From the IMG/VR virus record IMGVR_UViG_2541047122_000022: 6,885 nucleotides of DNA. One strand, given 5' to 3'. This DNA is from a virus. Its lineage: Duplodnaviria > Heunggongvirae > Uroviricota > Caudoviricetes. Under the pieces are notes generated by a model. The model saw only the letters and a program-made list of their open reading frames with translations, was not told where the DNA came from and made no database searches. This document shows, one piece after another, positions 4,317 through 6,053 of this stretch (position 1 is the first letter of the stretch; each line of letters opens with the position of its first letter). The translations under genes and the position numbers were made by a program.

Positions 4317-4983
4317 GCGGATGGTGCAGGCCTGAAATCATGATACTAACAATGAAGGTAAAATGCATCGGCAGTCTGATTGGTCGTAGTGAGGCGGCGG
4401 TCAGGATGAAAGCCCAGGTTAAGGGAATAAGCCTGATTCTGCGGGGTGATTTTCACCAGTCAACAAAATATCCGTAGCGCGATAACGGTCAAAAATTATG
4501 GCGCTGACACTTTTGTGCCACTGGAGATGACTGTACCTAAGTTCAGGGGAGAAGAACACGTCCGGTGGGATGGTCGGGCCAGATTTAAAGGGCAGGTCAT
4601 GGCTCCAGCCTGTACGCTGGCAATGGAGGCTGCCTGGCGGGAAATTGATATGGGAACCACGCCACTCAGGGATTTACTGCCGGTCCAGAGAATAAATTCC
4701 TGTTACGGTTACACCACTGTGATCTTGCAAGTGCAGGAAAGTAGGTCTACACGGTAACGCGAGTGCGTGTAACTTTTGATGTCATTCCCGTAGAAACACC
4801 GGACAAATTTTCGCTGACAGGTCATGCAGAAGGTATAAATCTGCAGATTATGGACAATTACGGATATCCGGCAAGAGCCGGAAAAAGCATGCCGCCTCTA
4901 ATTCTCAGTGGAAGATGGACTTGATTATACTCATTGCATTGTCAGAAATAGTTATCCATTAAAGGCTGGCTATTCCAAACAGG

Positions 4984-5011
4984 ATGTTGATTACAAAAAT
5001 GTAATCAACAT
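4984..5011. repeat. Perfect inverted repeat ATGTTGATTACA-aaaa-TGTAATCAACAT (12-bp arms) in the AT-rich region upstream of the binding-protein gene; possible regulator binding site
   Basis: Direct reading: 4984-4995 is the exact reverse complement of 5000-5011. It lies about 165 bp upstream of the ATG at 5176. Confidence 0.5.
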
Positions 5012-5175
5012 GTAAGGTTTATACTCTTCAATATGCGTATAATTTTCCTTATTTTGTTGACTTTAAATAACAAGCTATGCACGAGGTAAAGTCGGATAAG
5101 TTTATCTGGATGTAATATATATTATTTGTAGTGTTTATAACTTTATTTCATGATAACCAATAAAAGGAGTTTTTT

Positions 5176-5934
5176 ATGAGGAACATAATGGCAGGTTTTT
5201 TAATATTCCTGTCTTCTGCTGCTTATGCTGATATCAATCTGTATGGTCCTGGTGGCCCGCATACAGCCTTGCTTGATGCAGCCAAACTTTATGCCGAAAA
5301 AACAGGTATTATAGTGAACGTTCATTACGGCCCACAGAACAAATGGAATGAAGATGCCAAAAAAAATGCAGATATCTTGTTTGGCGCATCAGAACAATCT
5401 GCTCTGGCTATCATTCGGGACCATAAAGACAGCTTCAGTGAAAAAGATATTCAGCCTCTTTATCTGCGAAAAAGTATTTTACTGGTAAAGAAAGGTAATC
5501 CTAAAAATATCCGGAGTATTGACGACCTGACCAGACCTGGGATTGGCGTAATTGTTAATGATGGTGGTGGTACCAGTAATACATCAGGCACTGGCGTCTG
5601 GGAAGATATTGCCGGACGTAAAGGGAATATAGAAACTGTCGCCGCAATCCGAAAAAATATTATTTTATATGCGCCCAATAGCGGAACTGCACGTAAGGCT
5701 CTTGAGAATCAGCCTGGAGCAGATGTCTGGATAACCTGGGCTGACTGGGCAGCCAGTAATCCAGAAATTGGTGATGTCGTGGAAATAGCGCCAGACTACG
5801 TGATATGGCGTGATATGAACATTACAGTACGTCAGGATGCAAATGATGAAACCCGTCGATTTGCAGAATGGCTACAAACCGATGAAGCGGCGCCTGCATT
5901 CAAAAAATATGGCTGGACCAGGAAAGGCACTTGA
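5176..5934 (+). CDS. Secreted periplasmic solute-binding protein, ModA/oxyanion-binding-like (type II PBP fold), orphan, 252 aa
   Basis: ORF track 5176..5934 (+); RBS AAGGAG 6 nt upstream. N-terminal signal peptide MRNIMAGFLIFLSSAAYA followed by DINLYGPGG. Overall pattern (...ADILFGASEQ..., ...NIILYAPNSGTARKALE...GADVWITWADWAASNP...) resembles molybdate/tungstate-type binding proteins. No permease or ATPase gene is adjacent; the locus is AT-rich. Confidence 0.8.
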   Translation: MRNIMAGFLIFLSSAAYADINLYGPGGPHTALLDAAKLYAEKTGIIVNVHYGPQNKWNEDAKKNADILFGASEQSALAIIRDHKDSFSEKDIQPLYLRKSILLVKKGNPKNIRSIDDLTRPGIGVIVNDGGGTSNTSGTGVWEDIAGRKGNIETVAAIRKNIILYAPNSGTARKALENQPGADVWITWADWAASNPEIGDVVEIAPDYVIWRDMNITVRQDANDETRRFAEWLQTDEAAPAFKKYGWTRKGT

Positions 5935-5936
5935 CA

Positions 5937-5966
5937 TCCTCGTCCTTCAGGACGTGGATTCTTTTT
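5937..5966 (+). terminator. Rho-independent terminator after the binding-protein gene
   Basis: Stem TCCTCGTCC / GGACGTGGA (one internal mismatch), loop TTCA, followed by TTCTTTTT, immediately after the TGA at 5932-5934. Confidence 0.55.
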
Positions 5967-6053
5967 CCGGATGCCGCGCCAGCGGCATGTAGGGGCAGCT
6001 CACAAAACGGAAAAAATTGTACGCTAAGCCTCGCCAGGTGAACTGAATTCATT

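Follow-up and report, generated by a model that had tools for sequence, protein, structure and literature searches.

Identity, cassette anatomy and predicted ligand pocket of Paa (AdfO), an AcfC/PEB3-family protein carried in the cargo slot of a defective lambda-like prophage at ompW

Identity and location of the paa gene

The stretch of viral DNA analysed here, hereafter the window, is the 6,885-nucleotide (6.9 kb) record IMGVR_UViG_2541047122_000022 and belongs to a Qin-like lambdoid prophage, of which it spans the immunity, replication and early-right region; a plus-strand open reading frame (ORF) at 5176-5934 encodes a 252-residue protein with a solute-binding fold. The ORF was found to be 100% identical to RefSeq WP_001449026.1, which is named 'paa: AcfC family adhesin Paa', and exactly the same sequence heads a protein cluster (P0001) made up of 616 sequences of that name. 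The match to RefSeq, a sequence search of the PDB, an AlphaFold2 (AF2) model and Foldseek comparisons all place the protein in the AcfC/PEB3 family. Based on the sequence, the ORF is almost certainly paa (also called adfO or Z2053), the 'porcine attaching-and-effacing associated' or AcfC-family gene of enterohaemorrhagic and enteropathogenic Escherichia coli (EHEC and EPEC), which has been studied since about 2000.

The locus is the cargo slot, flanked by the replication genes and the hok/sok module, of a defective lambda-like prophage at ompW, known as PPompW, CP-933O or O-island 57. By megablast, the interval 4700-6250 of the window showed 100% DNA identity to numerous EHEC chromosomes (serotypes O157:H7, O26, O103, O111 and O145) and 99.9% identity to deposited 'PPompW' prophage records, in which the locus is annotated 'Paa/adherence factor'. 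In strain PV15-279 (O157:H7), where the identical locus is present, the prophage sits within a split ompW gene and carries an integrase, an exonuclease, dicB, tail genes and nleC. In comparison with the known Paa/AdfO (Z2053) of EHEC O157:H7 and porcine EPEC, both the protein and the locus are identical, with a fimbrial pseudogene upstream, hokD (ckf) downstream and ompW as the insertion site. Taken as a whole, this explanation of the locus is very probably the right one.

Earlier work has assigned adfO to O-island 57 (OI-57)/CP-933O of strain EDL933, inserted in ompW, and recognised it as a virulence- and adherence-associated factor (PMC8565820, PMC9729726). An adfO mutant showed reduced adherence to HeLa cells, secreted fewer proteins and had an altered secreted-protein profile (PMC8565820), and the adfO transcript in EDL933 was induced by the contents of bovine rumen and rectum (PMC8524897). 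The paa/adfO island is hence already known and its gene has a described role, which corrects the original prediction, made from the letters of the window alone, that no function had been described for such a gene; homologues with solved structures, PEB3 and AcfC, are also available. The same prediction had proposed that the gene could be a lysogenic-conversion factor, and in spirit this idea agrees with the virulence and adherence association and the induction in bovine contents given above.

Family membership, predicted structure and ligand pocket

The N-terminus of Paa, MRNIMAGFLIFLSSAAYA followed by D, was read manually and displays a hydrophobic core and an AYA-D cleavage motif, as in a typical Sec/signal peptidase I signal peptide, which occupies codons 1-18 (5176-5229, plus strand) and bears out the expectation of a signal-peptide-bearing ORF. 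Since there is no cysteine at all in Paa, it has no lipobox and is not a lipoprotein. The protein matches the Pfam family SBP_bac_11 with an E-value of 5.5e-34, and the best matches in the PDB sequence search were PEB3 of Campylobacter jejuni (E = 1.2e-81) and AcfC of Vibrio cholerae (E = 3.5e-81), with approximately 235 residues aligned in each case and an identity of 52% to 56% between Paa and the solved PEB3 and AcfC proteins. In PHROGs, the family to which Paa belongs (phrog_11834, E = 4e-176) is labelled 'unknown function'.

To compare structures, an AF2 model of Paa was built on a family alignment of 25 sequences, and it reached a predicted local distance difference test (pLDDT) score of 90.3 and a predicted template-modelling (pTM) score of 0.83. 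The Foldseek comparison of the model with the AcfC structure 4jb7 gave template-modelling (TM) scores of 0.90/0.97 and a root-mean-square deviation (rmsd) of 1.0 A, and the comparison with PEB3 gave TM scores of about 0.88/0.96, while the values for ModA structures were TM 0.65 to 0.79 and rmsd 3.5 to 5 A, at 11% to 18% identity. The model thus presents Paa as a two-lobed class-II solute-binding protein that is nearly superimposable on AcfC and PEB3. Full-length similarity, fold, the ligand-site loop and a Sec signal without lipobox are all found in Paa as in the AcfC/PEB3/Paa family.

The predicted anion-binding loop of Paa, S134-D144 (SNTSGTGVWED), is encoded at 5575-5607 on the plus strand and aligns with residues 136-146 of PEB3. 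It is invariant in the 25 homologues, which are 51% to 92% identical to Paa. In the HMMER alignment, T136 and S137 of Paa fall on T138 and S139 of PEB3, two residues which Min et al. (2009) reportedly placed at the ligand site and whose mutation is said to abolish ligand stabilisation. Other positions found invariant in the 25 homologues include GPGGPH (24-29), N168-S169-G170, the tryptophan-rich motif W-x-T-W-x-D-W (W185, T187, W188, D190 and W191), N195-P196, and R212. A conserved anion-clamping function across the family is well supported by these alignments. The hidden Markov model (HMM) and structure analyses suggested for finding a ligand pocket led to the AcfC/PEB3 fold with its invariant SNTSGTGVWED loop. 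The N-glycosylation sequon of PEB3, DFNVS, reads SFSEK in Paa and so is lacking; the sequon is specific to Campylobacter and irrelevant to the membership of an E. coli protein.

Among the well-characterised relatives, AcfC (V. cholerae pathogenicity island VPI-1; 4jb7) resembles Paa in its 52% identity over the structural alignment, its signal peptide, its equal length, its pocket motifs and its lack of a transporter. The two genes differ in their setting, as acfC lies downstream of the chemoreceptor gene acfB and is under ToxR/ToxT control (PMC5976639), whereas paa is borne by a prophage and has no chemoreceptor gene as a neighbour. PEB3 of C. jejuni (2hxw, 3fj7, 3fjg, 3fir), a glycoprotein of the periplasm that is labelled an 'adhesin' and binds 3-phosphoglycerate and PEP, shares 52% to 53% identity with Paa, has the T138/S139 pair that is kept in Paa, and is likewise encoded by a stand-alone gene, but peb3 belongs to the core chromosome, is regulated by BumSR (PMC12469816) and is not mobile cargo. 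With ModA, Paa has in common the fold class (SBP_bac_11, class II), a similar size and an anion-binding cleft.

Boundaries and signals of the paa cassette

A three-way comparison of the prophage with two IncF-type plasmids, pSTEC388_3 and J2 p3, delimited a plus-strand cassette of about 1.0 kb at 4984-5995 which is common to the prophage and the plasmids. Homology with both plasmids begins at about 4984-4990 and stops at about 5995, after a second hairpin, and the flanks on either side are unrelated; the paa-like genes of the plasmids are 87% to 92% identical to that of the window. The unit of 4920-5970 drawn in the original prediction was therefore near the true one, with limits that are now placed at about 4984-5995 for the cassette and at about 4290-6100 for the whole slot.

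The left edge of the cassette is formed by a perfect 12-bp inverted repeat, ATGTTGATTACA / TGTAATCAACAT, separated by a 4-nt spacer and located by a repeat search at 4984-5011. The repeat is kept in pSTEC388_3, is half-degenerate in J2 p3, and was not found upstream of the Edwardsiella or Enterobacter homologues nor in any other locus fetched. A role as conserved operator was tested and was unsupported, the repeat being missing upstream of the distant homologues; an operator, a hairpin and a scar of recombination are all conceivable readings. It is followed by an AT-rich leader (5016-5175, plus strand, GC 0.26), which from its composition is presumed to be the promoter region and which contains a perfect TATAAT at 5038-5043, kept in both plasmid copies, for which the best -35 hexamer has only 1 of 6 matches. 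A strong ribosome-binding site (RBS), AAGGAG, was read directly at 5164-5169 on the plus strand, 6 nt before the ATG, and is invariant in all three cassette copies. Downstream of the gene, a terminator scan found an intrinsic-terminator-like hairpin at 5941-5954 followed by a T-run (the whole at 5941-5967, plus strand), which is kept in the plasmid copies, and a pattern search found a second, GC-rich hairpin, ATGCCGC-gcca-GCGGCAT, at 5971-5988 on the plus strand, which marks the right end of the cassette and is kept in both plasmid copies. The gene has thus an RBS and terminator of its own, as anticipated from the sequence. Between the right end of the cassette and the resumed backbone homology, a stretch of about 100 bp, there is also a 24-bp perfect palindrome, CCGATATGGGAATTCCCATATCGG, at 6054-6077, which was found neither in the plasmid contexts nor in the paa-less prophage.

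Composition and anatomy of the cargo slot

The sharp AT-rich turn seen from about 4920 was borne out by the base composition. The sharpest dip, 4920-5175, has a GC content of 0.28 and consists of the last ~95 nt of an annotated fimbrial pseudogene together with the 160-nt leader, and the lowest 300-bp value, 0.29, starts at 4911, compared with a mean of 0.497, a standard deviation of 0.051 and a minimum of 0.377 outside the cargo slot. The paa ORF itself has a GC content of 0.44, climbing to 0.49 in its last third, and the GC content at third codon positions (GC3) is 0.35 for paa in comparison to 0.48 to 0.65 for three backbone genes.

The limits of the variable slot were obtained by alignment with a paa-less prophage, that of H105, and extend from the 3' end of the DUF1627 gene to the hok/sok module (4291-6102, with no strand assigned). 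Homology with the H105 prophage stops at about 4287, at the 3' end of the DUF1627 gene, and restarts at about 6103, just upstream of hok/sok. In H105 the slot (locus L002, 3457-4722) carries DUF977 and QueH genes, and in other prophages it carries a RelE/ParE pair or an ORF6N gene; the DUF1627-to-hok/sok junction is a hot cargo slot.

With regard to the features expected of a moron, presence or absence at a fixed position among related prophages was observed at the slot of about 4290-6100, and atypical base composition was observed in the leader and in the GC3 of paa. Together with the RBS and terminators of its own, these observations sustain the earlier description of the gene as prophage cargo. 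The arrangement resembles that of other lambdoid morons, such as lambda lom and bor and the EHEC prophage effector loci, in carrying translation and termination signals of its own, with an atypical composition, between conserved modules, in its presence or absence among related prophages, in its expression in the lysogen as described in the literature, and in its effect on host interaction. It differs from them in that paa lies at the replication-to-nin/hok junction and not at a tail-end effector locus, and in that the cassette also occurs on IncF plasmids.

Besides the cassette, the slot holds a small hypothetical ORF of 54 residues (4313-4477, plus strand; RefSeq WP_001505071.1; phrog_30109, unknown function, E = 6e-17) and a decayed fimbrial-subunit gene, the latter being a part of the island which the original prediction had missed. 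Based on alignment, three-frame translation and RefSeq, the fimbrial remnant lies at 4518-4976 on the plus strand (RefSeq pseudogene 4482-5015). It is approximately 86% identical to the intact subunit gene of an E. coli chaperone-usher operon (locus L003, 8923-9510), has lost its native 5' and 3' ends, and contains frame-breaking deletions of 10 bp and 5 bp, leaving a reading frame that is scattered across frames with stops, in line with the RefSeq note 'frameshifted; internal stop'. On plasmid J2 p3 (locus L014), a fimbrial operon is found a few kb from the paa-like gene.

Prevalence, other carriers and gene neighbourhoods

A cassette-only search gave matches in 611 of 5426 complete genomes of E. 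coli (about 11%), at 582 chromosomal and 36 plasmid places, so the cassette is not chromosomal backbone, which had been named as a possible objection to the cargo reading. The fimbrial pseudogene stands beside the cassette in every chromosomal record among the matches listed. When 50,697 deposited phage genomes were searched by tblastn, a family member was found only in 11 PPompW records. By its distribution in these searches, paa appears as accessory cargo and not as chromosomal backbone, nor as a widespread phage gene in that collection. A homologue with 54% identity was also located in Aeromonas (locus L012, 6001-6774, from Logan SRR25820356), where it lies inside a P2-like prophage between gpA and ogr/portal, the classical P2 cargo position; two unrelated types of phage hence bear a moron of the AcfC/Paa family.

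The original prediction had called the binding protein an orphan and had pointed to a cognate transporter just outside the window as the finding that would overturn this. Such a transporter was looked for, and the orphan status held: no annotated ATP-binding cassette (ABC) permease or ATPase gene is present within 20 kb on either side of the identical locus in PV15-279, and no transporter genes were seen on the paa-carrying plasmid. The homologue was without its own permease or ATPase in 7 of 7 other lineages sampled, namely Edwardsiella, Enterobacter bugandensis, Francisella endociliophora, a V. cholerae variant of the toxin-coregulated pilus (TCP) island, a Campylobacter species, Aeromonas and Helicobacter pametensis. 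Close to the homologues of Edwardsiella and Enterobacter there are ABC operons, which were considered as cognate partners and rejected, each already having its own binding protein; the gap between operon and homologue is 0.7 kb in Enterobacter and about 1.9 kb, with a traT gene on the opposite strand, in Edwardsiella.

The AcfC/PEB3/Paa family repeatedly adjoins virulence loci. A PEB3 homologue of Campylobacter (locus L011, 6001-9918) lies near cdtABC with one DUF817 gene between them, and in the V. cholerae variant (locus L010, 4451-6750) the AcfC-like gene is one gene downstream of toxT in the TCP island.

The host prophage and neighbouring genes

According to the ORF annotation, the window codes for a repressor of the DicA type (839-1246, minus strand), a regulator of the DicC/Cro type (1323-1550), a YdaT-like protein, a replication protein that is O-like and has a DnaT domain, a lambda-P-like protein, a DUF1627 protein and, 3' of the island, a Hok-family toxin. 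The O-like replication gene (1982-3094) is intact in the window, while its counterpart in PV15-279 (locus L001, 16043-18395), whose prophage is identical in other respects, is broken by IS1203; IS1203 being absent from this gene, the window strain therefore differs from PV15-279. Prophages of the PPompW type have been described as defective yet stably inherited lambda-like prophages of E. coli strains that make Shiga toxin (STEC) and of EPEC (PMC8112680). A single Actinobacillus phage record matches part of 4700-6250, and the match may be the short stretch near hok/sok that was seen in other partial matches.

The hok/sok type I toxin-antitoxin module downstream of the slot (6123-6425, plus strand) was identified by the Rfam sok family RF01794 (103.9 bits at 6123-6272) and the Pfam family HOK_GEF (E = 1.7e-21), and it includes hokD (6270-6425, plus strand), as annotated by RefSeq at the identical locus. 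The module is the 'ckf' (killing factor) of the OI-57 literature, belongs to the prophage backbone outside the paa cassette, and is common to thousands of E. coli prophages and plasmids. The gene ckf (Z2054), a hok homologue, has been described as always found together with adfO (PMC8565820, PMC9729726), and it serves beside adfO as a virulence marker of OI-57.

Possible mode of action and alternative explanations

As a working model, Paa would be made in the lysogen uncoupled from the lytic programme of the phage and exported to the periplasm, where it would close on a small anionic ligand, of the class of phosphorylated or carboxylated C3-acids, phosphate, sulfate or acidic amino acids, in the manner of the PEB3 and AcfC crystals. 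It might then hand information or cargo to a partner encoded by the host, be it a chemoreceptor, a sensor or a transporter, and the gain in adherence or colonisation would more likely be an indirect consequence of this than the result of direct receptor binding by a surface adhesin. In agreement with such a model, AcfC was found to be periplasmic by fractionation, to affect chemotaxis to mucin and intestinal distribution, and to be dispensable for cell adhesion (PMC5976639), and PEB3, which is needed for chick colonisation, has been viewed as a component in the transport of 3-phosphoglycerate-like metabolites (PMC12469816). We lean slightly towards Paa being a periplasmic ligand binder with an indirect effect, as against a true adhesin.

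A number of points weigh against this model and have to be kept in view. The analysis yielded no partner protein for Paa, both the literature and RefSeq name it an adhesin, and the antibody-blocking and surface-labelling data of Batisson (2003) are said to favour a surface role. Mutation of K135 in PEB3 reportedly abolished ligand stabilisation as well (Min 2009), and this residue is not conserved, being Thr133 in Paa and Val in AcfC. The ligands found in the crystals differ, L-phospholactate in one PEB3 entry versus D-aspartate in the AcfC entry, and PEB3 crystals are also reported to hold citrate and 3-phosphoglycerate; because the crystal ligands of PEB3 and AcfC differ, the ligand specificity of Paa is not transferable from its homologues. 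In addition, a generic scan of the leader found no convincing sigma-70 promoter, so that its role as promoter is inferred, and the gene-neighbourhood sample covers seven lineages only.

The alternative suggested by the name is that Paa is a genuine surface adhesin, delivered to the surface by a route such as the type 2 secretion system of pO157 or by release and re-binding, which would directly bind sulfated host glycans or mucin and act in early attachment ahead of intimin-Tir. This would fit the reduced adherence of paa and adfO mutants and the altered secreted-protein profile upon adfO mutation (PMC8565820), as well as the binding of recombinant AcfC to heparin, chondroitin sulfate and mucin in an enzyme-linked immunosorbent assay (PMC5976639), and the designation 'AcfC family adhesin Paa' used by RefSeq and in the literature. 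We nonetheless consider it rather unlikely, as Paa has no anchor, no cysteine and no beta-barrel, autotransporter or fimbrial features, its fold is that of a closed soluble binding protein, and the loop aligning with the PEB3 ligand site is among the most conserved parts of the family; moreover AcfC is periplasmic and unnecessary for cell adhesion (PMC5976639), and PEB3 is now regarded as a component of metabolite transport (PMC12469816). The same fold and invariant pocket, together with the description of PEB3 as a transporter for 3-phosphoglycerate-like metabolites that is required in chick colonisation (PMC12469816) and the induction of paa in bovine digestive contents (PMC8524897), could also be explained by nutrient scavenging, an idea raised in the original prediction, in which Paa would deliver an oxyanion or phosphorylated metabolite to an ABC importer of the host and so favour growth of the lysogen in the gut. 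That scavenging is the role of Paa seems unlikely: no sampled member of the family has a dedicated permease or ATPase, a host transporter partner is known in no species, the phenotypes reported in E. coli concern adherence and not growth, and membership in the ModA, Sbp and CysP families was not found.

The last point also bears on the description of the protein as ModA-like, which stood at the level of the fold (SBP_bac_11) and failed at the level of the family. No NCBIfam model was above threshold for Paa, and the only matches, all below threshold, were to Sbp, CysP and ModA models: for ModA, 18.3 bits against a cut-off of 62.5 (TIGR01256) and 17.7 against 470 (NF002920), and for Sbp and CysP, local matches of about 45 residues with 22.6 against 288, 21.5 against 155.5 and 19.0 against 308 bits. 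These weak local matches, and the position of ModA and the sulfate-binding proteins as the next-best structural neighbours (TM about 0.65 to 0.79), are what would speak for Paa being a molybdate/tungstate binder of the ModA type or a sulfate binder of the Sbp type, displaced from an oxyanion ABC importer. With scores of 18 to 23 bits against cut-offs of 62.5 to 470, with 11% to 18% identity and an rmsd of 3.5 to 5 A as compared with 52% and 1.0 A for AcfC, and with no modBC partners or cysUWA context, such an origin is scarcely credible, and the claim of ModA/Sbp membership is effectively refuted. Equally far-fetched is the proposal, also made in the original prediction, that Paa acts in the periplasm as a decoy or superinfection-exclusion factor guarding the lysogen from other phages, which has in its favour only the periplasmic location and the place in a slot that carries toxin-antitoxin genes in other prophages. 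No match to PADLOC-DB was obtained at E <= 0.1, the same cassette is found on plasmids, the homologues of Campylobacter, Helicobacter, Francisella and Edwardsiella are chromosomal, non-phage genes, the small-molecule pocket is conserved, and the published phenotypes concern host interaction. In general, the comparison of these explanations leaves a periplasmic ligand binder with an indirect effect on adherence as the reading that we prefer for Paa.

Significance

The discovery value of the locus itself is small, as paa/adfO has been named and mutated, has two crystallised homologues and serves in STEC risk typing as an O-island 57 marker for PCR. The new details are the boundaries of the cassette and the slot, the fimbrial remnant as neighbour, the stand-alone arrangement in all lineages sampled combined with an invariant pocket, and the PHROGs label. 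Owing to this label, a gene recognised as virulence-associated can escape phage annotation pipelines, and the exact cassette of about 1.0 kb and the slot limits help to track its movement between prophages and IncF plasmids.

For the family as a whole, the lack of transporters and the invariant pocket sharpen the long-standing question of whether Paa, PEB3 and AcfC are adhesins or ligand sensors and carriers. A bolder answer, which we offer tentatively and regard as somewhat doubtful, is that Paa, like the whole family, is no adhesin and is obligately an orphan periplasmic ligand sensor which docks on a conserved partner from the core genome, such as a chemoreceptor, a sensor kinase or a generic importer. 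If this were true, the 1-kb cassette would be a plug-in with which prophages, of the lambdoid kind in E. coli and the P2-like kind in Aeromonas, as well as plasmids and pathogenicity islands, supply host behaviour with a new chemical input, for example a sulfated or phosphorylated metabolite derived from host mucus, and the adherence phenotypes would be secondary.

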